Positions 3,557 to 26,083 of a stretch of DNA of 64,000 nucleotides are shown here, one piece after another. The stretch lies in the NCBI GenBank assembly GCA_964532495.1, contig CAZHJZ010000002.1, positions 79,501-143,500 on the forward strand, in the 5' to 3' direction. The position numbers were made by a program, and so were the translations under genes. This stretch comes from an uncultured Candidatus Saccharibacteria bacterium. GTDB taxonomy: Bacteria > Patescibacteriota > Minisyncoccia > Phycocordibacterales > UBA9973. Below the pieces are notes generated by a model that had not been told where the DNA came from, searched no databases, and was given only the letters and a program-made list of their open reading frames with translations. The number at the start of each line of letters is the position of its first letter. Position 1 is the first letter of the stretch.

Positions 3557-4990
3557 ATGCATTCCACTTCAAACAAAAAATGGCTCACCCTCGCAATTCT
3601 CTGTCTCGGTGCTCTCATGATAGTGCTTGATACAACCATCGTTAACGTCGCTCTTCCTTCTATCAAAGCAAGCCTCGGCTTTTCTGATACCTCGCTCGCC
3701 TGGATCGTGAACGCATACATGCTGACATTTGGCGGATTTCTGCTTCTTGGCGGACGTCTCGGTGATATTTTTGGGCAGCGAAAGTTCTTTTTGATCGGCA
3801 TTGGGATTTTTAGTGCTGCTTCCCTTCTCTGCGGGCTAGCTCACACACAACTCTTTCTAATCATTGCCCGAGCCATCCAGGGACTGGGCGGAGCACTCGT
3901 TGCCTCAATTGCCCTATCTCTTATCATGAATCTTTTTACTGAACCGGCAGAAAGAGCGAAAGCAATGGGAGTGTACGGTTTCGTCTCTGCTGGCGGCGGA
4001 TCTATTGGCGTTCTACTCGGTGGCATCATCACCAGCACACTCAGTTGGAATTGGATCTTCTTGGTAAATATTCCTGTTGGGATCGCTGTTGCCATCCTCT
4101 GTCTCGTACTGCTTCCTGAATACAAAGACAATCAGCAAAAGCATCGCCTCGATATTGCAGGTGCAGTCACTGTAACTTCAGCATTGTTGCTCGCTGTGTA
4201 TGCGATCATCAATGGAAACGTCGTGGGCTGGCTTTCAACACAAACACTACTCATGCTTGGCGCATCAGTAATTCTCTTTGGTATTTTCATTTTTGTTGAA
4301 TCAAAAGTGCACTCGCCGCTCATGCCGCTTCACTTGTTCAAAAAGAAAACGATCGCTGCATCAAATGTGATCGCCATGCTCTGGGCTGCGGCAATGTTCT
4401 CATGGTTCTTCCTTTCAGCATTATACCTGCAACTCGTACTCGGTTATGATCCCCTTCATGTCGGACTTTCATTCCTTCCAGGCAATACAATCATGGCGCT
4501 ACTCTCACTGGGCATTTCAGCAAAGATTGTTATTAAGTTTGGCATCCAGCGCCCACTTGCAGTTGGAATGGGGCTAGTAGCCGTTGGTTTACTGCTCCTC
4601 TCTCGCGCACCAGTCGGTGGTGAATATTTTATTCATGTATTCCCAAGCATGGTATTGCTCGGTATTGGCGGCGGTATAGCTTTCAACCCGCTCTTGCTTG
4701 CAGCAATGAGCGAAGTAACTCCGCATGAGTCTGGACTTGTATCTGGAATGATCAACACTGCCTTCATGATGGGCGGACCGCTCGGACTTGCATTGCTTGC
4801 AAGCGTTGCGGATTCACGAACTCATCATGCAATGGCTGTCGGCATGAACCATCTCGCGTCCCTCGTCAGCGGCTACCATGCTTCATTCATTGTTGGTACA
4901 TGCTTCGCTGTTCTTGCTGCCATTCTCGCGCTGGCTTTCTTGCCAACGTACTCTGACGCGCCTGCAAATGCTTCGCACGGGATGATGTAA
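3557..4990 (+). CDS. MFS transporter, DHA2 (EmrB/QacA) drug:H+ antiporter family
   Basis: 14 predicted TM helices. Canonical MFS/DHA2 motifs GGRLGDIFGQRK and LDTTIVNVALPSI. Confidence 0.9.
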   Translation: MHSTSNKKWLTLAILCLGALMIVLDTTIVNVALPSIKASLGFSDTSLAWIVNAYMLTFGGFLLLGGRLGDIFGQRKFFLIGIGIFSAASLLCGLAHTQLFLIIARAIQGLGGALVASIALSLIMNLFTEPAERAKAMGVYGFVSAGGGSIGVLLGGIITSTLSWNWIFLVNIPVGIAVAILCLVLLPEYKDNQQKHRLDIAGAVTVTSALLLAVYAIINGNVVGWLSTQTLLMLGASVILFGIFIFVESKVHSPLMPLHLFKKKTIAASNVIAMLWAAAMFSWFFLSALYLQLVLGYDPLHVGLSFLPGNTIMALLSLGISAKIVIKFGIQRPLAVGMGLVAVGLLLLSRAPVGGEYFIHVFPSMVLLGIGGGIAFNPLLLAAMSEVTPHESGLVSGMINTAFMMGGPLGLALLASVADSRTHHAMAVGMNHLASLVSGYHASFIVGTCFAVLAAILALAFLPTYSDAPANASHGMM

Positions 4991-5070: not shown

Positions 5071-5751
5071 TTAGTTTCGATTGTACATTGTTTCCAAAAA
5101 TGTATCTTTGCATGAATTGTAAAGAATAAAATTCCTTACTGCATTATCGAGCGGCAGAGTAGTTTCTACTCTCCGATTCGGACAATCGCATTTGTACTGG
5201 AAAATTTCCGGGTGAACTTTTCCGTACAAATATACCTGAGAGCTCCATGCTTCTTGTTCGTCCTGATACGCGTATTGAACAGAATTAGTAATACCTCTGG
5301 TTAACCGCCCGTTTTCTTGTAAGGCATGAATGAACTCATGTATTAGAATACAAGCCTGAGCATCCAAATCCTGGGTAATTGAATCCAAGTCTTCATTTAC
5401 CAAAATAACTATATGCCGGGTTTTCTGCATCGTCTCGGTATCAAATTGAAACGCAGTTTTTTGAGTAACGGTATTTTTATTCTTATGCAATTTTGCATCA
5501 GGGGCAATCAGCAGGGCAAATTGTTTTTGGTTAGAATAGCTAGCTTTTCCATCCTTATCGGATTGCACTACTATCATTTGCGATAATCCATCGATTATCA
5601 GCTTTTTAGAATTAGCATCAGGAATATAATCACACAGCTGTGCAGCGCGATCAATGATTTGTTGCCCTTTAGTAATACTCATCGTACCATGTGATTGCTT
5701 GCAGCCTGCAAATAAAAGAAGTGCGAAGCAAAGGATTAGATTGTTTTTCAT
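5071..5751 (-). CDS. putative lipoprotein with HExxH zinc-metallopeptidase motif
   Basis: Lipobox LLFAGC after the signal peptide; motif ILIHEFIHAL (HExxH). Confidence 0.5.
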   Translation of the reverse strand: MKNNLILCFALLLFAGCKQSHGTMSITKGQQIIDRAAQLCDYIPDANSKKLIIDGLSQMIVVQSDKDGKASYSNQKQFALLIAPDAKLHKNKNTVTQKTAFQFDTETMQKTRHIVILVNEDLDSITQDLDAQACILIHEFIHALQENGRLTRGITNSVQYAYQDEQEAWSSQVYLYGKVHPEIFQYKCDCPNRRVETTLPLDNAVRNFILYNSCKDTFLETMYNRN

Positions 5752-5875
5752 TTTAAAGAACGGGGTTTTAATTAAGAAATGACCAAATAGTCTCTAGGAA
5801 ACTGCTTGGTCATTTCTTAACATGATTAATATAACATTTATTTATCTTCTTGTCAAAAGTAGTAAAATATAGTTT

Positions 5876-5903
5876 TTGACATTTCTAAGATTAATGCTAT
5901 GGT
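5876..5903 (+). promoter_or_regulatory. candidate sigma70-like promoter (TTGACA-N16-TATGGT) upstream of the 6042 ORF
   Basis: Perfect -35 hexamer and 4/6 -10 match, read directly from the sequence. Confidence 0.3.
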
Positions 5904-6041
5904 ATGCAAAGTCTGTTTCCTTGAAATAGTTAAAGAAAAACAAAGCACTTCATCTTTGTGAAATGCTTTGTTTTTCTTTAACAATAAACAAGTCCCCGTA
6001 AAATAGCTTTAACCAACAGGCAAAGATAGCGAGGCAGCACC

Positions 6042-6497
6042 ATGGCAAAAACAGCCACCATTTTCCAATTCTCTGCATTCTTTACTGTGTTGCATACCCT
6101 TTTACTTGGGTTAGTTACAAACAAAAATACTAAAATTTGTGAAATTGACGGAGACAGAATTCAGGAAATAATAGACCGTGAAAACAAAGGTGACTTTATT
6201 GATGAACTAATCAAATTCATCAATAACAGCGGCCGAGTACAGAGACCTACTGTTAAGCTTAGATCTGCAAAAGTTCTAACCATTGCCGACTACCAGGAAG
6301 CCGCTAAGATTATTGAACAGGACGGAACTAGTGGTATTGAAACCGCAGCAAAAATTGTAGGCTGGGATATAGCCATGGCGCTCCTTATTTCTTCTTTAAG
6401 AATACAATGCGGATCCACCACTTCCTTTCCTGCACCGGAAGATCTTGAAAATAAAGTTAACAAAATACTAGACGAAGAAAACTTAGGATTACAATAA
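6042..6497 (+). CDS. hypothetical protein
   Basis: 151-aa ORF followed by two intrinsic terminator hairpins (6524-6552, 6561-6602). Confidence 0.45.
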   Translation: MAKTATIFQFSAFFTVLHTLLLGLVTNKNTKICEIDGDRIQEIIDRENKGDFIDELIKFINNSGRVQRPTVKLRSAKVLTIADYQEAAKIIEQDGTSGIETAAKIVGWDIAMALLISSLRIQCGSTTSFPAPEDLENKVNKILDEENLGLQ

Positions 6498-18113: not shown

Positions 18114-18830
18114 TTATTCAATATCAGCGACAATCGCCATGTGGTCGCTCACGCCGCTTATCAAGCGGACATTCTTTGCGACATATGTGGGCGTAGTAAA
18201 AAGTCCATCCACCATGCGCTGCAATCCTGGTACTCGATGTAGTTCCTGATCCAAACTTGTTGTATATTTTTCCGGAATATTATCCTTATATCGTTCAGCC
18301 AATTTCGCAAATGCCGCTCTTCCTCGCGGTGCATTGAAATCTCCAGCGAGAATGAACTGCCCGATTTTATCAAGCGCAAGGAACATGCTGTCGATATCGC
18401 GTAATTGGTAGTCGGTCACTTCGCCGTTAGGTGTCCATGCCGCATGCGTCGTTGCAACTTTGAATTTCACATCATTGATTTCTATAACGCATGAGAGCAC
18501 TGCACACTGGACAAGAAGATGCGTATCATATCCCATGTGAGGATCCATGACGGTTACCTGTTCCTCCGAACCGGCATAATACTGCTTGAGAATATCTTTC
18601 ATTTCATATTTTGAAAAAATTCCCAGACCCATGAGTTTTCCCGCATGAGAAAATGTGTCATAGACCATTGGAACAAAATATCCCTTCATTCCGACTTCCA
18701 ACCCAAAGAATGTGAAATCTTCGAGCAAGATCTCCTGCACGCAGATAACATCGGGCTTCTCGATGCGCACAAACGGAATGACGCGATGAAGATGTTTGTT
18801 TCCTTCAATATTTACTGAGATGAGTTTCAT
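18114..18830 (-). CDS. endonuclease/exonuclease/phosphatase (EEP) family protein
   Basis: N-terminus KLISVNIEG...DVICVQE and C-terminal SDHMAIVADI, typical of the EEP fold. Confidence 0.7.
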   Translation of the reverse strand: MKLISVNIEGNKHLHRVIPFVRIEKPDVICVQEILLEDFTFFGLEVGMKGYFVPMVYDTFSHAGKLMGLGIFSKYEMKDILKQYYAGSEEQVTVMDPHMGYDTHLLVQCAVLSCVIEINDVKFKVATTHAAWTPNGEVTDYQLRDIDSMFLALDKIGQFILAGDFNAPRGRAAFAKLAERYKDNIPEKYTTSLDQELHRVPGLQRMVDGLFTTPTYVAKNVRLISGVSDHMAIVADIE

Positions 18831-18920
18831 ACTGCAGTAGAATATATTTTTTATGAAGATTTAGCAAGAATGGGTATTTAAATACCAATCATCAGTTGAC
18901 CCATTAGATATCAATAAAAC

Positions 18921-19280
18921 TCAAAAAACATTATTTTTCAACTCTTTATATAACTTATTATATTCTTTTTCGCCTTCTTTTGTAGCTAAAAACCAATACC
19001 ATGTGTGTGAGTCAATATTCTCTACTTTTAAGGAATTGATTACTTCTTTCCTGAGACGACTTTCGTCAAGTTGGACTTCTTGGTAACTTCGGTTGTTAAT
19101 AAATTTATATTCTGTTGGAAAAATTTTCTTTTCTTTTACCAAATCAACTACAACTTCAGCTATACGATTAGCTTCAGCCTCCGTTCTTTCTTGCTCATTA
19201 CCCCAAAACTCCCATGAACCATATTCACTTTCAGAGCATACTTCAAGTATATTGAATTGTATTTCTTTTTTATTGATCAT
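18921..19280 (-). CDS. hypothetical small protein, possible orphan immunity protein of the Rhs locus
   Basis: 119-aa ORF in a very AT-rich cassette downstream of the rhs gene; no motif recognised. Confidence 0.4.
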   Translation of the reverse strand: MINKKEIQFNILEVCSESEYGSWEFWGNEQERTEAEANRIAEVVVDLVKEKKIFPTEYKFINNRSYQEVQLDESRLRKEVINSLKVENIDSHTWYWFLATKEGEKEYNKLYKELKNNVF

Positions 19281-19523
19281 CGTAAGCTAAGAAGACTTTT
19301 TCGTCTTTCCAAATTTGAATGATATCAAGCGGATGAAAAACTACTTCGTCTCATGACTTTACAGCTTTGAGAAGTTTTTCTCAGTAAAGATCATCGTCCA
19401 AAATCCCTGTCCATTCAGCTGAATCTTGTTGCTTTGTAATTTTAACCCACTTTCTTTCAGCACCTCACCTTCCACTTCTACTAGAAAATGATTTTTACGA
19501 GCTCCTATGGAATTACTCAGTTT

Positions 19524-19835
19524 TTATAGCCAACCAAATTCTTTTAGAACATTTGTTAAATTATTAAACTTGAAACTCAAATACCAAAAATAATACTTAT
19601 CTTCACTTGATGTATCACGAGGTATGATACAAATACCGTGAGCAACAATTGGTAGATATTTTTTTATTTCTATTTTTTCGATTTGGTCATGGGTAAAACA
19701 ATATTTTTTTCTAAACAATTGATTGTTTAGAATTAGCTCATCTTGGCAAACTTCTAAAGTAACAAATGGCCAAGTAATCTGCCAAGATCCGATCCAAGCA
19801 CCGCCTCTGAATTTATTTTCTTTAGTATTTACCAT
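19524..19835 (-). CDS. putative cognate immunity protein of the Rhs C-terminal toxin
   Basis: 103-aa ORF beginning 4 nt after the rhs stop, same strand, AT-rich like the toxin tip. This gene order is the canonical polymorphic-toxin arrangement. Confidence 0.5.
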   Translation of the reverse strand: MVNTKENKFRGGAWIGSWQITWPFVTLEVCQDELILNNQLFRKKYCFTHDQIEKIEIKKYLPIVAHGICIIPRDTSSEDKYYFWYLSFKFNNLTNVLKEFGWL

Positions 19836-19838
19836 AAT

Positions 19839-22800
19839 TTACTTTGTTAATTTATTAATTAAGTTTGCAACATTTGTAGCACCTTGATTTACGGCACTGG
19901 TTATAGAATTAACCGCATTTTTCATACCATTAATAATACCAGAAATATTACCCTGATATACAGGAGTTGTTTTATTAACACCTCCGCTAAAAGTTACAGG
20001 TATAGGCGTTGGACCCAATCTTGCTCCCATCCCGATACCAACTTCAGTTCCAGAATATTTTCCGCCAGAAAAATTAGTAGTAACATCTCCTCCAAGAAGG
20101 ACTTTACCTCCTAGGGAAGCATAGTTCTCGGTTCCCAATGTATCATTCCAAGTTTTTGCGTTTGAATAACCTGCTGATATTCCAATCGAAGCATCTGCAC
20201 CGGCTAATCCACCACCATGTAAAGACTTTGATATACCAAATGTTCCGTCAGAAGCAAAACCTATATTAAACGAACTACCAACTTCGCCACCCAAACCGAT
20301 GTTAGTTGTTAAACCAAGCTGAAAAGCAAATAGGCCGGTTGGATCGCTCATAGTTATCGGATTATTAAGACCATAACTATATGAATTTAAATTTTGTGGA
20401 TTAGATAAATATTCAAATAAAAATTGGTTATTGAACTGATCTTTTTTTTTATTTGAATTTCGCCAGTTTGTATCCCATTTTTTGTTGAAATCTTGAGAAC
20501 CAATAAGCAAGAACATTGGATCTTGAGAGATGAATTGACCTCTATCCCCCCCATAGTAGCGTGCATTCAGATAATTTAATCCTGTATCGGCATCATACTC
20601 CTGCCCAATAAATTGTTTTTGCTCATTGAATCCTGTCGCCTGTTCATTCAATCGCACTTCGCCGAATGGATAATAATCAAGCAGCTGATTTTTTGCGCCA
20701 GCTGCATCTGAAATGACATTTGATCCCAACACAGTGTCTGTATGCACATAGTATGGAGTAATAGTTGTCCCTACAGTTTCTATCGTTCCTACCAGCTGGT
20801 TGCCGACATATATTTGTTTAGTCTTTTTACTTCCAACTGTATTGTAATATTTGTTCGGATAATGCGTGGTATTTGTCTTGTCATTATAATAGACTCGATT
20901 GCCTGCGTGATCGTACAGATATGAAATAAATCTTGAGCCCTTCACTGTTTTTACAAGCTCATCTTTATAGTTCCAAGTATTAGTCAACTGACCGTTTGTC
21001 AGCATGTCACCATTTCTATTGTATGTAACGGAAGTACCATTGACGCTTGTTGCAGCATGGGGGTTAGCAAAGCTAGTACCAGTAGAACCCAAGTAAGAAT
21101 ACGAACCTACATCAGACTTGGAGAGAATATTCCCAAGCACATTGTAAGCATATGTTTGCGTATACGCGCTCTGCCCAGGCGCAACATTTGTAATAGTTGC
21201 CGATAAGAGACGATTTAGATCGTCGTATGTATAGTTGGCCATCTTTGCTCCATTGGTAGCTGAAGCATCAACTAATTGGGTAATATTGCCATCCACATCA
21301 TACGTATATGTCAGATCCTGCAATGTTATATTTGAAGAATTGAGAGTTTTTTTCGAATTCAATCGATACAGTTCCGCTGCATCATAAGTATTGGTGGTAG
21401 TAACTCCATTCGCGTACACCATTGTTGCAATCATATTTGTTGGAGAATAATCAATGTTTGAAACAATGTTTGCATACGCCGTTGCATTCTCCTTCGCTTC
21501 TGCTTTATCTACCAAGCCTGCGGTGTTGTATGTATATCGAACAGATGCTCCGTCTGGATAGATAATCACTGATTGATTTCCCTGACGGTCATACACATAC
21601 GAAGTGAAATAGTTGGAAGTACCAATCGTTCTGGATTCGGTTGCAATTGTACCGTTTTTATCGTAACCATACACAGTATTGACACCGTTTAGCATCGTTA
21701 CTGAACAGAGCTTTCCTTTCCCATTGGCGCAGGCGTCATATGCATAGGCAATCTCAGTCCCCGTTGCACCAGTGTAGTTTTCCTGGATCTGACGATTGAG
21801 GCCATCGTATTTGTAAGTTGTTTTTGCTTCAGGGCTGGTCAGTATTATTAGATTGCCCACAGTATCATACGCGTATTGCCATGTTCCAAACGATGTATCG
21901 CCTACTGCATGAAGATCTTGCGCTGTTAAGCGATTACCTCGGCCGTCATACGTGAAATCACGGATATTTCCGAGCGCATCAGTAAGTCGCACAAGCTGTC
22001 CTGCAACGTTCCAAAGATACTGCGTAGTGTATGTTGAACCAGCATTGATCTCATCTACTTGAATAAGTTTTCCATACGCATTGAGGAAATAGTTTTTTAC
22101 TTTTCCCATAGGGTCAGTTACTTTTGTTTTAAATCCGGCATATGTATTTGTCGTAGTGCCAATACTATTCTGTTCAGATGTGACTCTGCTGAGAGCATCA
22201 TATGAACGCACGGAGTATAATGCTGCGATAGTAATAGCAGGAGTACGCAAAGCGCCACCGCTTGAATACGGCAGTGATTGTTTCTGAATTCTGCCCGAAG
22301 AATCATACACAGTATCTGCGGTATTAAACATCCCAGCAGTTTCTGATTCCTTGCGTGTCTGAATGCTGCGGCCCAATCCATCAAAGTACTCGTATGCTTC
22401 AACGCCATTTGAGGCATCGAGATATTGTGTGGTTTGTTTTAGTACGTTGTTTGAAGTGTCAGTATATACATATGCTGTTTTTAGAACGGGAGAACTTCCG
22501 CCAGCAGGATCAGGAATGCTTTCCGTAAGCGGTCTGCCAAAACCATCATAACTGCTCATCCATGTATTCCCATTTGCATCGGTCATTGAACTAACCTTGC
22601 CTACTCCATAGTCATATACGTAGTTGGTCGGCTGCAAAATTGCGTTAGTGACTGTTGCGGGATACAAATTGTATGAATCATAAACATATGAAGTTGCATT
22701 ACCGAGAGGGTCTGTTTCAGATGTCACATTTCCAAATGTGTTGTAGGCCTTCTGTTTAGAAGCATATGTTGCTCCGCTTATCCATTGTTCTTGTTTTGTT

Positions 22801-25800
22801 TGATTGCCCTTAGTAACAGAATTAAATGGGCCATTATCGTAATAGAATTTTGATTCCGAAAGCTTTAGAGAAGACTGATCTTTGATAGAAATAGAAATTG
22901 GAACAATCACACCTGTAACGCCATTTCTTACATAGTCATAACTGGAATTTCGCCTATCTGTCCCTGTATCGGTAAACGTTCCGTCAGAAGCTGCAATTAC
23001 CGTTCCGAATTCCGTCTGTTCTGCCACAAATCCTGTAGAAGCATCGTACTTGTAACTTGTCGCCGTGTCCGTATGGGTAGGCAATCCGTCATATTGAAGA
23101 GTAATAGTTCGGTACAGATATACGAAATCAGCGGCTGCTGAAAGCGGTGCCGAATTCCATTGGCTGATCTCTGTCTGATACAAATTGTTAGCAAGGTTAT
23201 ATGTTTCTTTACGATATGGTTTCCCTATTTTGGATCGGCTATCAGCAAGCTCACCCAAAGCAGCATTAGTTGAGTTTCCTTGGTGATAATATGTTTTTAT
23301 TATTGCGTCAGGGCGCGTCTCTGTTACCACACCAAAGCCAGCAAACTTGCGATCGGATGGCGAAGCGTAGTAATAATATCCATCTGCATATGAGTATGAT
23401 GTTGTACTGCTGGAGCCATATCCATCATTTACTGTCACAGCTGCTACTGTGGTAACAACAAGCGGAAGTGAAGGGTTTAGTAAATTTCCTGATTGATCTT
23501 TGTACTGTGCAGAGCTTTTGTAGGTAACTCCATACGAGCCTCCGGCCGGAAGCGTAATCGTTTTTAAAAGATCATTAGGGCTTGTATTTGTATTTGGATA
23601 AATATTGTTATTCGCAACAAAATCCTGCGCTCCGTCGGCATTGATATCCATTAGTAAGTATGGATTCTGGCACAGACAGTTTACCGTTGCACTTATCGAT
23701 GATGTGAAACTTGGACTTGTGACATAGAGCGAAGCGAATCCTTTACCAGTGTTTGTGTATATTCTGTCGCCGATCACATAGATATCATCGAGGCCGTCAT
23801 TATTGAAATCGGCAATTTCAAATTTATTATATGAAGTTCCGAAATACGCATTCTGTAAAAAGTAAAAGTCTGGTGGCAATATATATGAATTATCCAATAC
23901 CCAATTTGTTCCGGTGTTAATATACACATTGTCCGTATAAACGTATTGGCAATTGCCGCAATTATTCAAGCTTCTGCTTGCTTGTATAAAGTCCGGAAGC
24001 TTATCACCATTGATATCCATCATGAAGTAATCAGATCTTCCAGAAAAAATTGGCGTGTACGCGAGAGGCACTGTTCCAGTTCCCGCGTGGCTTAACGTTG
24101 CATTGACATTGAAATTTGTTCCAGTGTTGAGAGATGTTGTTGTATTGTAATAAATCGGCAATCCGCCAGTAGAAGGATTGGTGTCTTGTAAATAGTCTAC
24201 CAACCCATCGCCGTTAAAGTCTTGGGTAAATAACGAGTACCATGGATTCGAAGTATATTTGGGGTATTGTGAGCTACTAGGTGTATACGGCACATTAGTC
24301 CAACCGGCTCCAGTGTTGATATTTTCATCAGGCATCACCGATGCGTTGTATGCGTACGGTGTTCGAAGTAGATCGGGCTTTAGGTCTCCGTTTAGGTCTA
24401 CAAGCCGAGTGCCGCCATCAAATTTACTGTTGCCGTCCGAGTAATTCATAATCCCCGCTGGAGGATTGAATGAAGCAGGACTTTGGGCAAACAGGCCTGT
24501 TGTAGGATTGAACAGCATCGTTTTTTTATCTGAAGTATATGTGTAGACAGTCCATTCATATGCCTTTAAAGCATCTGGATAGGCATCGCCGTTGATATCG
24601 CCAACAATCACTCCATTTTGCACGTCAGTTGGGAATAATCCTGGTACGGATTGGGCATTGGCGGTTTTGAATGTCTGATCAATATTGGAATTGTAGGCAA
24701 ATGCTTCAGCTGGCAAAGTGACTCCTGTTCCGTTTGCATCGTATCTCGTTTCAGTTATCGAAGAAAGCAAAGAACGCAGGCCGTTATTCCCTTGTGTATA
24801 CGAAAAAATGTATTTGCCTTTTAATATATTGTTTGCATAAATCCGAACATCGGAAATGATATAAGAAGTACGAACCAAGTATGCAGTAGCGTAGCTTTCG
24901 ATTACATCAGAGCGACTGATTCTGCTGAAAGTAATTTTATAAATGCCTGGCAATCCAGCAGCGTTTGTATACGTAATAGTATCCGGGTATATCTGCCCGT
25001 CATTTTTGTAATATGTATAGTCAATCGAATTCCCATTTGAATCCTGAGTTTTCTCAAGCATCCATTTTGAAACTTGCGCTGTATCGGCTGGATTGTCTTG
25101 GCGGGATTGTGCTGTTGTTCCATACGTATATGTAGTTCCGGCTTTATCCGTTACTGTCCATGATGTTCCTGAATATGAATACTTAAGCATCTCGCCACCA
25201 TCTGAGCGAGACATGTATGTTGACCCTGCGATATTTGCAAGCTCTCCTGAAACAGAAGAAGTAAACTCATTTTGTGAATACAATGTCTCGGTTCCTTTTT
25301 TGTTTACTCGTTCGATGTACGGAATAGTTATATTCCAACCGTACCCAACGAGCGAAGCATCCTTGCCGCTCTGTGAATTGTAATTTAAAGCAATACTGGG
25401 AGTCATCCCGTTTCTTCCTTGCGGCACAACTATGCTATGGCTGTATGAAAGTGCTCCAGTCGAAGCGTCAGTTTCGGGTTTTACTTGTTTTACTGGAGTA
25501 GGTGGATTGTCGCCATTTGAAGGATTTATCGCGAGCAAAGACTGCTGAACTTGCTGTTGTTGTACGTTTGCCAGTGGAGCAGCTTCCGGCCCCTCGGTGT
25601 GCTTTGGCTCTAAATCAGAAACTATATCTATATTTTTACTATCCAGGGTTACTATTTTTTTATCTGAAACTTCTGATGCCACTGTTTGGAGCGGTGGAGC
25701 AATAATCTGTTCTTTCGAAACTGATCCGCTGCTGCGGAGAGACTCAGCAGCCATTGGAACTTCTTGCGCATATACAGTGATGAGCGGGGCGCTCATCATG

Positions 25801-25868
25801 GTAGCGGCAAGCGAGAGTGATACGACCTTAAGCAGCGCCAAGCGCTCAAAACGTACTAATGTAATCAT
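19839..25868 (-). CDS. Rhs/YD-repeat polymorphic toxin (TcB/TcC-like: signal peptide, SpvB/FG-GAP-like N-terminal repeats, YD-repeat shell, DPTGL motif, Gly-rich C-terminal domain); the ORF is open to 25976
   Basis: Many YD repeats (YTYDVDGN, YLYDHAGNRVYY, YVYDRQGNQ, YKYDGLNR...). FG-GAP-like DxNGDGxxD repeats (DINGDAYPD, DLNGDLKPD, DFNGDGLVDY, DINGDKLPDF, FNNDGLDDIY). Rhs core end ...QDPM...SDPTGL followed by a 163-aa Gly/Ser/Thr/Asn-rich tail. Start at MITLVRF chosen because a promoter-like AT-rich segment and a terminator lie 5' of it. Confidence 0.9.
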   Translation of the reverse strand: MITLVRFERLALLKVVSLSLAATMMSAPLITVYAQEVPMAAESLRSSGSVSKEQIIAPPLQTVASEVSDKKIVTLDSKNIDIVSDLEPKHTEGPEAAPLANVQQQQVQQSLLAINPSNGDNPPTPVKQVKPETDASTGALSYSHSIVVPQGRNGMTPSIALNYNSQSGKDASLVGYGWNITIPYIERVNKKGTETLYSQNEFTSSVSGELANIAGSTYMSRSDGGEMLKYSYSGTSWTVTDKAGTTYTYGTTAQSRQDNPADTAQVSKWMLEKTQDSNGNSIDYTYYKNDGQIYPDTITYTNAAGLPGIYKITFSRISRSDVIESYATAYLVRTSYIISDVRIYANNILKGKYIFSYTQGNNGLRSLLSSITETRYDANGTGVTLPAEAFAYNSNIDQTFKTANAQSVPGLFPTDVQNGVIVGDINGDAYPDALKAYEWTVYTYTSDKKTMLFNPTTGLFAQSPASFNPPAGIMNYSDGNSKFDGGTRLVDLNGDLKPDLLRTPYAYNASVMPDENINTGAGWTNVPYTPSSSQYPKYTSNPWYSLFTQDFNGDGLVDYLQDTNPSTGGLPIYYNTTTSLNTGTNFNVNATLSHAGTGTVPLAYTPIFSGRSDYFMMDINGDKLPDFIQASRSLNNCGNCQYVYTDNVYINTGTNWVLDNSYILPPDFYFLQNAYFGTSYNKFEIADFNNDGLDDIYVIGDRIYTNTGKGFASLYVTSPSFTSSISATVNCLCQNPYLLMDINADGAQDFVANNNIYPNTNTSPNDLLKTITLPAGGSYGVTYKSSAQYKDQSGNLLNPSLPLVVTTVAAVTVNDGYGSSSTTSYSYADGYYYYASPSDRKFAGFGVVTETRPDAIIKTYYHQGNSTNAALGELADSRSKIGKPYRKETYNLANNLYQTEISQWNSAPLSAAADFVYLYRTITLQYDGLPTHTDTATSYKYDASTGFVAEQTEFGTVIAASDGTFTDTGTDRRNSSYDYVRNGVTGVIVPISISIKDQSSLKLSESKFYYDNGPFNSVTKGNQTKQEQWISGATYASKQKAYNTFGNVTSETDPLGNATSYVYDSYNLYPATVTNAILQPTNYVYDYGVGKVSSMTDANGNTWMSSYDGFGRPLTESIPDPAGGSSPVLKTAYVYTDTSNNVLKQTTQYLDASNGVEAYEYFDGLGRSIQTRKESETAGMFNTADTVYDSSGRIQKQSLPYSSGGALRTPAITIAALYSVRSYDALSRVTSEQNSIGTTTNTYAGFKTKVTDPMGKVKNYFLNAYGKLIQVDEINAGSTYTTQYLWNVAGQLVRLTDALGNIRDFTYDGRGNRLTAQDLHAVGDTSFGTWQYAYDTVGNLIILTSPEAKTTYKYDGLNRQIQENYTGATGTEIAYAYDACANGKGKLCSVTMLNGVNTVYGYDKNGTIATESRTIGTSNYFTSYVYDRQGNQSVIIYPDGASVRYTYNTAGLVDKAEAKENATAYANIVSNIDYSPTNMIATMVYANGVTTTNTYDAAELYRLNSKKTLNSSNITLQDLTYTYDVDGNITQLVDASATNGAKMANYTYDDLNRLLSATITNVAPGQSAYTQTYAYNVLGNILSKSDVGSYSYLGSTGTSFANPHAATSVNGTSVTYNRNGDMLTNGQLTNTWNYKDELVKTVKGSRFISYLYDHAGNRVYYNDKTNTTHYPNKYYNTVGSKKTKQIYVGNQLVGTIETVGTTITPYYVHTDTVLGSNVISDAAGAKNQLLDYYPFGEVRLNEQATGFNEQKQFIGQEYDADTGLNYLNARYYGGDRGQFISQDPMFLLIGSQDFNKKWDTNWRNSNKKKDQFNNQFLFEYLSNPQNLNSYSYGLNNPITMSDPTGLFAFQLGLTTNIGLGGEVGSSFNIGFASDGTFGISKSLHGGGLAGADASIGISAGYSNAKTWNDTLGTENYASLGGKVLLGGDVTTNFSGGKYSGTEVGIGMGARLGPTPIPVTFSGGVNKTTPVYQGNISGIINGMKNAVNSITSAVNQGATNVANLINKLTK

Positions 25869-25971
25869 ATGTATACACACACTACTAATAAACAAGGAAA
25901 GAAGCAATTCTAGTAATACGACATGAAAAAACGATAAAATATACATAAAATTCACTGAGACTATATATATA

Positions 25972-26003
25972 AACAAAAAAACGCCCGGACGGCGTTTTTT
26001 TTG
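25972..26003. terminator. intrinsic terminator downstream of tRNA-Ala (minus strand), AACGCC/GGCGTT stem with flanking A/T runs
   Basis: Hairpin and T8 run read directly from the sequence. Confidence 0.55.
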
Positions 26004-26010
26004 TTTATTG

Positions 26011-26083
26011 TGGACCCTATCGGATTCGAACCGATGACCTCCTCATTGCAAATGAGGCGCTCTACCAACTAAGCTAAGGGCCC
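26011..26083 (-). tRNA. tRNA-Ala (anticodon TGC)
   Basis: rc gives GGGCCCTTAGCTTAGTTGGTAGAGCGCCTCATTTGCAATGAGGAGGTCATCGGTTCGAATCCGATAGGGTCCA, including the Ala-identity G3:U70-type acceptor stem. Confidence 0.85.

Follow-up and report, generated by a model that had tools for sequence, protein, structure and literature searches.

A putative two-module immunity cassette, one gene of it decayed, behind an Rhs gene of an uncultured Candidatus Saccharibacteria bacterium

What is left between two small genes behind an Rhs gene when the stretch that separates them no longer encodes a protein? The question is raised by a locus of an uncultured Candidatus Saccharibacteria bacterium (assembly GCA_964532495.1), of which 64,000 nucleotides (nt) of contig CAZHJZ010000002.1, positions 79,501 to 143,500, were analyzed; this whole stretch is called the window, and coordinates follow its numbering unless another locus is named. 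The Rhs gene is followed on the same strand by two small open reading frames (ORFs), ORF103 and ORF119, and the gap between them holds no ORF of 60 amino acids (aa) or more. In these respects, coordinates included, the locus is laid out as an original prediction made from the sequence had described it, although the spacer between the Rhs stop codon and the ATG of ORF103, given there as 4 nt, consists of 3 nt (ATT). The same prediction took the gap for a possible degraded fragment of a displaced Rhs tip and ORF119 for a possible orphan immunity gene. Our comparisons indicate that the gap is a dead gene of an immunity type and not a toxin tip. Taken as a whole, the region probably forms the immunity cassette at the 3' end of an Rhs polymorphic-toxin locus, assembled from two modules of separate origin (Table 1).

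An intergenic stretch of 243 bp is not in itself improbable, and the sole ORF of at least 30 aa inside this one is a 38-aa ORF with a GTG start (19359-19475) that matched no meaningful Pfam or NCBIfam family. The gap is regarded as a real gene remnant because of its homology to an intact 96-aa gene on the related loci L014/L015 (related loci are given L numbers throughout). In blastn, window positions 19504-18929 formed a single block with 86% nucleotide identity over 579 nt to L014/L015, which spans the gap from codon 29 of the 96-aa gene and continues through ORF119. On L014 the intact 96-aa gene precedes a homolog of ORF119 (83% amino acid identity); L015 and L016 are overlapping fragments. 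The aligned part of the gap, psi96, corresponds to codons 29 to 97 of the intact L014 gene. One frame of the gap reads GAERKWVKITKQQDSAEWTGILDDDLY*EKLLKAVKS*DEVVFHPLDIIQIWKDE, for comparison with GAERMWVKITKQQDTAEWTGIVDNDPYGEKLLQVVKSGDEVIFHPLDIIQIWED in the intact L014 protein. The start codon and codons 1 to 28 are absent, and the stop codon has changed from TAA to GAA (19302-19300). Between these ends lie three nonsense codons, namely, Q36 (CAG to TAG, 19483-19481), G70 (GGA to TGA, 19383-19381), and G80 (GGA to TGA, 19353-19351), together with two single-base deletions, in codon 37 (19481/19480) and codon 42 (19466/19465). Substitutions have also reached conserved positions, with the family-invariant M47 of the ERMW motif replaced by K and the nearly invariant P68 by L. 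Synonymous and nonsynonymous changes among the substituted codons numbered 10:13 in psi96 and 21:21 in ORF119, which is too few to discriminate between selection regimes. The original prediction was right that the gap is degraded coding sequence, but the codon-for-codon match is to an immunity-type gene instead of an orphan tip fragment, and no similarity to an Rhs tip or to the end of an Rhs core was found in 19281-19523.

The assignment of psi96 to an immunity type depends on the family of its parent gene, for which 22 homologs were collected. In their alignment E45, R46, M47, and W48 (E-R-M-W) are invariant, and D89 near the C terminus is nearly so. Imm34 is recognized by an ExxW motif, by an Asp conserved near the C terminus, and by its presence in heterogeneous polyimmunity loci (Zhang et al. 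2012, PMC3482391), and the 96-aa family shares all three, the motif in the form ERMW. DUF2314 (PF10077) was matched at an E value of 1 or less by 2 of the 22 members, the better of which, P0066, reached 21.5 bits, just short of the gathering score of 22. We call the family DUF2314/Imm34-like because of this shared signature together with the subthreshold score; it is a name by motif, given below the PF10077 gathering score, and the proteins, at about 96 aa, differ in length from the 134-position DUF2314 model. Weak SH3-type Pfam matches (SH3_2/CusF) in 8 of the 22 members give no more than a hint of a beta-rich character, and a PDB sequence-profile search with the family gave chance-level matches only.

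Closer relatives of the 96-aa gene are found where an immunity gene might be expected. On L014, 21 nt separate the start of the gene from the stop codon of an HNH nuclease tip, which scored 39.3 bits against Pfam HNH, and genes with 59-66% identity stand in Rhs 3' arrays at L019/L025, L026/L027, and L028. At L019/L025 it comes third among the small genes that follow an Rhs protein whose tip has weak, subthreshold deaminase matches, and at L026/L027 it is second, behind an Rhs gene and a membrane protein. At L028 two identical Y1 transposase genes (3777-4454 and 5563-6240 of that locus) flank it within an array of orphan Rhs fragments. The Rhs-array context is confined to these closer relatives (identity of at least 59%). 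Immediately ahead of the 96-aa gene on L014 (1474-2194), what is left of an Rhs gene is a 154-aa N-terminal stub, to which the last ~85 aa of the HNH tip are fused in another frame, and the GC content falls across this joint from about 50% through about 42% to 35%.

ORF119, which follows psi96, shows no sign of the same decay: it is full length and keeps all 13 columns that are invariant in an alignment of 34 sequences. These 34 homologs (45-83% identity) came from a word-index search, and the labelled ones belong to Sungbacteria and Parcubacteria assemblies. An exhaustive profile search among 1.84 billion proteins returned only 81 cluster representatives at E values of 0.001 or less, so the family is small, and a scan of GTDB genomes for its relatives returned three loci, one of them new and in a Saccharibacteria assembly. 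In four independent loci, whose assembly labels are Saccharibacteria, Sungbacteria, and Parcubacteria, with one contig unlabelled, an ORF119 homolog lies directly 3' of an Rhs tip with the consensus ...GGGTR[YW]P.P...G[ED]QVRI..G...DP.K.GPYGR[IV]S.... These tips are 52-65% identical to one another and matched no Pfam family; each copy is followed by an ORF119-family gene, and the tip family is a candidate for an uncharacterized toxin domain. The tips are basic, with an isoelectric point (pI) of 9.4. ORF119 itself has a pI of 5.07 and its family a median of 4.9, and the conserved residues of the family are aromatic or acidic (SESEYGSWEFW, YWFLAT). As the partner tip is absent from the 64-kb window, we conclude that ORF119 is a putative orphan immunity-type gene whose toxin partner would lie outside this locus. 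To this extent the original prediction of an orphan immunity gene is borne out, by a family that follows one Rhs tip in four loci and by a window that lacks that tip.

Members of the ORF119 family also occur without the GGGTR[YW]P tip. They stand behind the 96-aa gene in the window and on L014, alone at L018 about 235 nt downstream of a tRNA-Gln gene, second behind Rhs and DUF7674 at L009, and among other small ORFs at L010 and L011. In P0078 the ORF119-family domain is fused to DUF2251, and in P0075, P0090, and P0092 to a second domain that has no assignment; we liken these fusions to those described for polyimmunity proteins. An AlphaFold2 model of ORF119 (predicted local distance difference test [pLDDT] score, 90.8) has an alpha+beta, winged-helix-like fold. 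The best Pfam match to a helix-turn-helix in the family had an E value of 0.38 and occurred in 1 of 34 members, and a PDB sequence-profile search with ORF119 gave chance-level matches only. Y1 (IS200-like) transposase genes adjoin orphan immunity genes at L005 (8766-9440) and L009 (8458-9117), and it is possible that Y1 transposases are a vehicle for the movement of cassettes.

The first small gene, ORF103, has to be considered together with the end of the Rhs protein. After an N-terminal signal-like region this protein contains SpvB, FG-GAP, RHS-repeat, and Rhs-associated-core domains (Pfam SpvB, 4e-18; RHS_repeat, 1.2e-15; FG-GAP_3; DUF6443; NCBIfam TIGR03696 Rhs_assc_core, 4.5e-15). The core closes with NNPITMSDPTGL, a PxxxxDPxGL-like motif, past which the glycine-rich tip is unlike those that related Rhs genes carry. 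The combination of a YD/RHS shell, a core motif, and a variable tip is that of an Rhs polymorphic toxin, and a small co-oriented downstream gene that covaries with the tip is present in ORF103, L003 excepted. The tip itself, presumably a toxin domain, matched no Pfam or PDB sequence, and a PDB profile search reached chance level only. Relatives with 57-65% identity terminate Rhs proteins in L004 and L003, and L001 holds, as an orphan, a fragment of 82 aa from the 3' end of this tip.

Ten homologs of ORF103 (64-84% identity) were found. The homolog on L004 overlaps the stop codon of the Rhs gene that bears the same glycine-rich tip, and on L001/L002 the 82-aa orphan fragment lies directly 5' of another. 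Because the two are partnered across three loci, ORF103, which encodes a basic protein, is likely to be the immunity gene cognate to the window's glycine-rich tip. The AlphaFold2 model of ORF103 (pLDDT, 84) has strands at residues 7-86 and a helix at 87-99. Its best Foldseek match was the pleckstrin homology (PH) domain of Sin1 (E value, 7e-4; template-modeling [TM] score, 0.67); SSRP1 (PH-like domain) and Rtt106 (tandem PH domains) were matched as well. The predicted fold is PH-domain-like at the level of fold only, without a sequence family: scans of ORF103, and of its homologs member by member, found no Pfam or NCBIfam family, SUKH/SMI1 included, and a PDB sequence-profile search gave chance-level matches only. 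ORF119 likewise, by itself and member by member across its family, matched no Pfam or NCBIfam family, SUKH/SMI1 included, so the profile search against Imm/SUKH/SMI1 families that had been suggested for both small ORFs yielded zero family matches. On L001 (1373-5619) the ORF103 homolog and the orphan tip fragment adjoin an operon (SMODS/AGS_C, SAVED-HNH) resembling a cyclic-oligonucleotide-based antiphage signaling system (CBASS). A LexA/S24-like gene lies beside the homolog there, and the homolog is followed by a 45-aa fragment that duplicates an N-terminal part of the ORF103 family.

The point at which these two parts meet can be located closely. Window positions 19830-19509 are 88.5% identical to L003 3552-3874, and the homology to L003 stops at 19509; the homology to L014 starts at 19504. 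Thus, two independently conserved modules abut within 5 nt. GC content sets the small genes apart from their surroundings, with 29.5% in ORF103, 36.6% in the gap, and 30.8% in ORF119, compared with 42.6% in the window and 41-44% in the Rhs core and the next gene. The small ORFs are therefore as AT-rich as had been claimed, but the claimed ~28-30% GC does not extend through the gap. Taken together, a cassette of 30-37% GC lies in a window of 43% GC, and the L014 module has 35% GC between flanks of 50-54%. Such a low-GC cassette, 86% identical across hosts of differing GC, argues for horizontal exchange.

The analysis shows how the genes are arranged, which lesions psi96 bears, where the modules end, which tips and partners occur together, and which folds are predicted. 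From this, with function read from context, we infer the following as the most likely history, in which one cassette would have replaced another. The first module consists of the glycine-rich tip and ORF103, whose product would bind the tip and neutralize it in the producing cell. The second (19504-18929) would be the leftover of an older or foreign cassette, with psi96, which holds the 3' two-thirds of the 96-aa gene, dead and ORF119 intact. An incoming cassette of glycine-rich tip and ORF103 may have recombined into the locus and removed both the former tip, which would have been of the HNH type if L014 mirrors the ancestor, and codons 1 to 28 of the 96-aa gene. What remained of that gene would then have gathered nonsense and frameshift mutations, and ORF119 would have stayed intact, kept as an orphan that would protect against a GGGTR[YW]P-tip toxin delivered by neighbors.

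Several observations weigh against this interpretation. On L003 the gene directly downstream of the glycine-rich tip encodes a 154-aa membrane protein with two transmembrane segments instead of an ORF103 homolog. The ORF103 homolog of that locus (84% amino acid and 88.5% nucleotide identity) is an orphan behind another tip and the Cys-rich partner of that tip; the pairing of tip and ORF103 is therefore not absolute. (An hhalign comparison found no relation of the membrane protein to the ORF103 family.) None of the three small-protein families matches a curated immunity family above threshold in Pfam or NCBIfam, and the immunity roles proposed for all three are read from their genomic context. 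The 96-aa gene stands behind an HNH tip in one locus only (L014), and its distant relatives (less than 51% identity) occur in unrelated, nontoxin contexts; the genes upstream of 80 metagenomic relatives were heterogeneous, with no recurrent toxin. The best Foldseek matches of ORF119 are regulators with a winged helix of the PadR/MarR type, albeit weak ones (E values of 0.09 to 1; TM scores of 0.5 to 0.68). Lastly, the proposed order of events is drawn from two genomes, the GTDB scan having returned no sister genome of the window.

The alternatives concern either the gap or the small genes. A decayed 3' end of a displaced Rhs tip in the gap, with ORF119 as its immunity gene, would follow an arrangement that does exist among the relatives: the 82-aa tip fragment on L001 precedes an ORF103 homolog, a tip remnant on L009 precedes an ORF119-family gene, and L005 holds a 572-aa orphan Rhs. 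In the window, however, tblastn with the three tips that partner ORF119 returned only chance matches (E values of at least 3) in the 64 kb and none in the Rhs locus. The HNH tip of L014 had no tblastn counterpart either, and the gap is accounted for, codon for codon at the 86% nucleotide identity given above, by a 96-aa gene that does not encode a toxin. On these alignments the displaced-tip explanation is effectively refuted, and we grant it only the slimmest chance. The principal competitor to an immunity role for ORF119 is that it encodes a small PadR/MarR-like winged-helix regulator of the cassette. The top 20 Foldseek matches in the PDB to its confident model are indeed PadR, MarR, SarX, and related winged-helix regulators, but they share only 6-16% identity with it at the weak E values already mentioned. 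The family is acidic, and its conserved residues are aromatic or acidic and not those of a basic recognition helix. Moreover, in four loci its genes either overlap the end of one specific toxin tip family by 4 nt or follow it after 2-9 nt, and a winged-helix fold has a precedent among immunity proteins in Imm-NMB0513/DUF596 (PMC3482391). A regulator therefore seems unlikely to us.

It is also conceivable, at considerably longer odds, that the small genes have nothing to do with toxins and belong to the generic accessory content of mobile islands, the gap being a spacer or a regulatory RNA. The lack of a curated family match for ORF103 and ORF119 would fit this, as would the homologs that lie away from Rhs genes (those of ORF119 at L010, L011, and L018 and that of ORF103 beside the CBASS-like operon of L001). 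Against it stands the tight and repeated co-occurrence of both families with particular Rhs tips, and the conservation of the gap is accounted for by its protein-coding homolog. Nothing pointed to the small ORFs as conserved housekeeping genes or to the gap as a conserved regulatory region, either of which would have told against the original prediction: Rfam gave zero matches in 18700-19900, and promoter- and terminator-like sites were not in excess of those in shuffled sequence. In a last alternative, psi96 would still be expressed, its UGA codons recoded as glycine (genetic code 25, used by some lineages of the candidate phyla radiation [CPR]). Two of the three in-frame stops are GGA-to-TGA changes at the conserved glycines G70 and G80, a coincidence with a chance of about 0.03 if every single-base path to a stop is equally likely. 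However, psi96 also has a TAG codon and two 1-nt deletions, and it has lost codons 1 to 28 along with the start codon. In addition, 40 stop-to-stop ORFs of at least 200 aa in the window, including the 2045-aa Rhs ORF, are open under code 11, with TGA ending 3 of the 40, and ORF119 itself ends in TGA. Recoding deserves almost no credence. The reading of the region as a two-module immunity cassette with a pseudogene at the head of its second module is the one we retain.

Understood in this way, the locus has close counterparts in the Rhs and contact-dependent growth inhibition (CDI) loci with orphan modules (Poole et al. 2011, PLoS Genet, PMC3150448; Koskiniemi et al. 2014, PMC3967940). As in those, a full-length rhs gene carries a variable tip past a PxxxxDPxGL-type core end, a cognate immunity gene follows, displaced remnants of other cassettes come next, and the cassettes are AT rich and horizontally exchanged. 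It differs in that the displaced material consists of immunity-type genes only, one dead and one intact, with no tip fragment, and in that the host appears to be of the CPR/Patescibacteria type and not a proteobacterium, with no type VI secretion system context seen. It also resembles the orphan-immunity or polyimmunity loci (Zhang et al. 2012, Biol Direct, PMC3482391), in which an intact immunity gene without its toxin stands beside immunity genes of other families; the fusion of ORF119-family members to other small domains elsewhere is a further likeness. Orphan immunity is also the subject of two further papers (PMC12247911, PMC10539506). Unlike the genes of those loci, ORF119 belongs to no described Imm family, and the protection it may give is putative. 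Imm-NMB0513/DUF596, whose members are winged-helix-fold immunity proteins (PDB 2O5H; PMC3482391), provides a precedent for a small alpha+beta immunity protein of winged-helix type with conserved tryptophans. However, ORF119 had no sequence match to it in the PDB profile search, 2O5H was outside the top 50 Foldseek matches, and the partner toxin families are others.

ORF119 is separated by 90 nt from a gene of the endonuclease/exonuclease/phosphatase family, which has a host-like GC content and looks like the first resident gene past the island. At the other end, 34 nt separate a tRNA-Ala(TGC) gene (26010-26083, minus strand) from the Rhs start codon downstream of it (25976), so that the island directly adjoins a tRNA gene. 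tRNA genes are classic integration sites. Rfam matches in the whole window were to tRNAs only.

Table 1. Features of the Rhs locus and their counterparts in related loci (window coordinates unless a locus is named)
Feature	Position	Strand	Description
Rhs ORF	19839-25976	minus	2045 aa, TAA stop
Variable C-terminal tip of Rhs	19839-20330	minus	Last 163 aa plus stop; glycine rich
ORF103	19524-19835	minus	Small ORF directly 3' of Rhs gene
ORF-less gap	19281-19523		243 bp between ORF103 and ORF119
Junction of [Rhs tip + ORF103] and [psi96 + ORF119]	19505-19509		Homology breakpoints
psi96	19300-19504	minus	5'-truncated, multiply disrupted pseudogene of 96-aa DUF2314/Imm34-like gene
ORF119	18921-19280	minus	Intact small ORF, ends in TGA
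Endonuclease/exonuclease/phosphatase-family gene	18114-18830	minus	Pfam 2e-13; 44% GC
Counterpart of window 19504-18929	L014 2300-2877
Glycine-rich tip elsewhere	L004 about 4000-4448
Glycine-rich tip elsewhere	L003 348-827
Glycine-rich tip elsewhere	L001 4611-4857
GGGTR[YW]P tip	L024 5672-5998		1960-aa full-length Rhs, Saccharibacteria assembly; 2-nt spacer to ORF119 homolog
GGGTR[YW]P tip	L005 7675-8001 (L005-L008)		572-aa orphan Rhs, Sungbacteria assemblies; 4-nt overlap
GGGTR[YW]P tip	L017 275-601		9-nt spacer to ORF119 homolog
GGGTR[YW]P tip	L009 9137-9433		Orphan tip remnant, 8 nt before divergent ORF119-family member

A locus that combines a cognate immunity gene with a decayed remnant and an orphan is of textbook architecture among Rhs and other polymorphic-toxin loci, and it is the families that are new. 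The main value of the analysis lies in annotation: 19300-19504 may be entered as a pseudogene of a DUF2314/Imm34-like gene, ORF119 as a putative orphan immunity-type gene, and ORF103 as a candidate cognate immunity gene. Four protein families, two of tips and two of partners, are without a curated family assignment, and the labelled assemblies that carry them are CPR/Patescibacteria. The sharp junction would make the locus a clean, datable case of cassette replacement.

To our knowledge, the targets and the delivery of Rhs toxins in CPR/Patescibacteria are essentially unstudied. We tentatively suggest, at somewhat less than even odds, that the locus and its relatives contain two new toxin-immunity pairs, apparently confined to these bacteria: the glycine-rich tip with the soluble, PH-like ORF103 and the basic GGGTRYP...GPYGRIS tip with the acidic, winged-helix-like ORF119 family. 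If so, cassettes that are 86-89% identical across hosts of very different GC content would point to an active exchange of immunity genes, and both pairs would be handles on how ultrasmall episymbiotic bacteria fight each other or attack their hosts.

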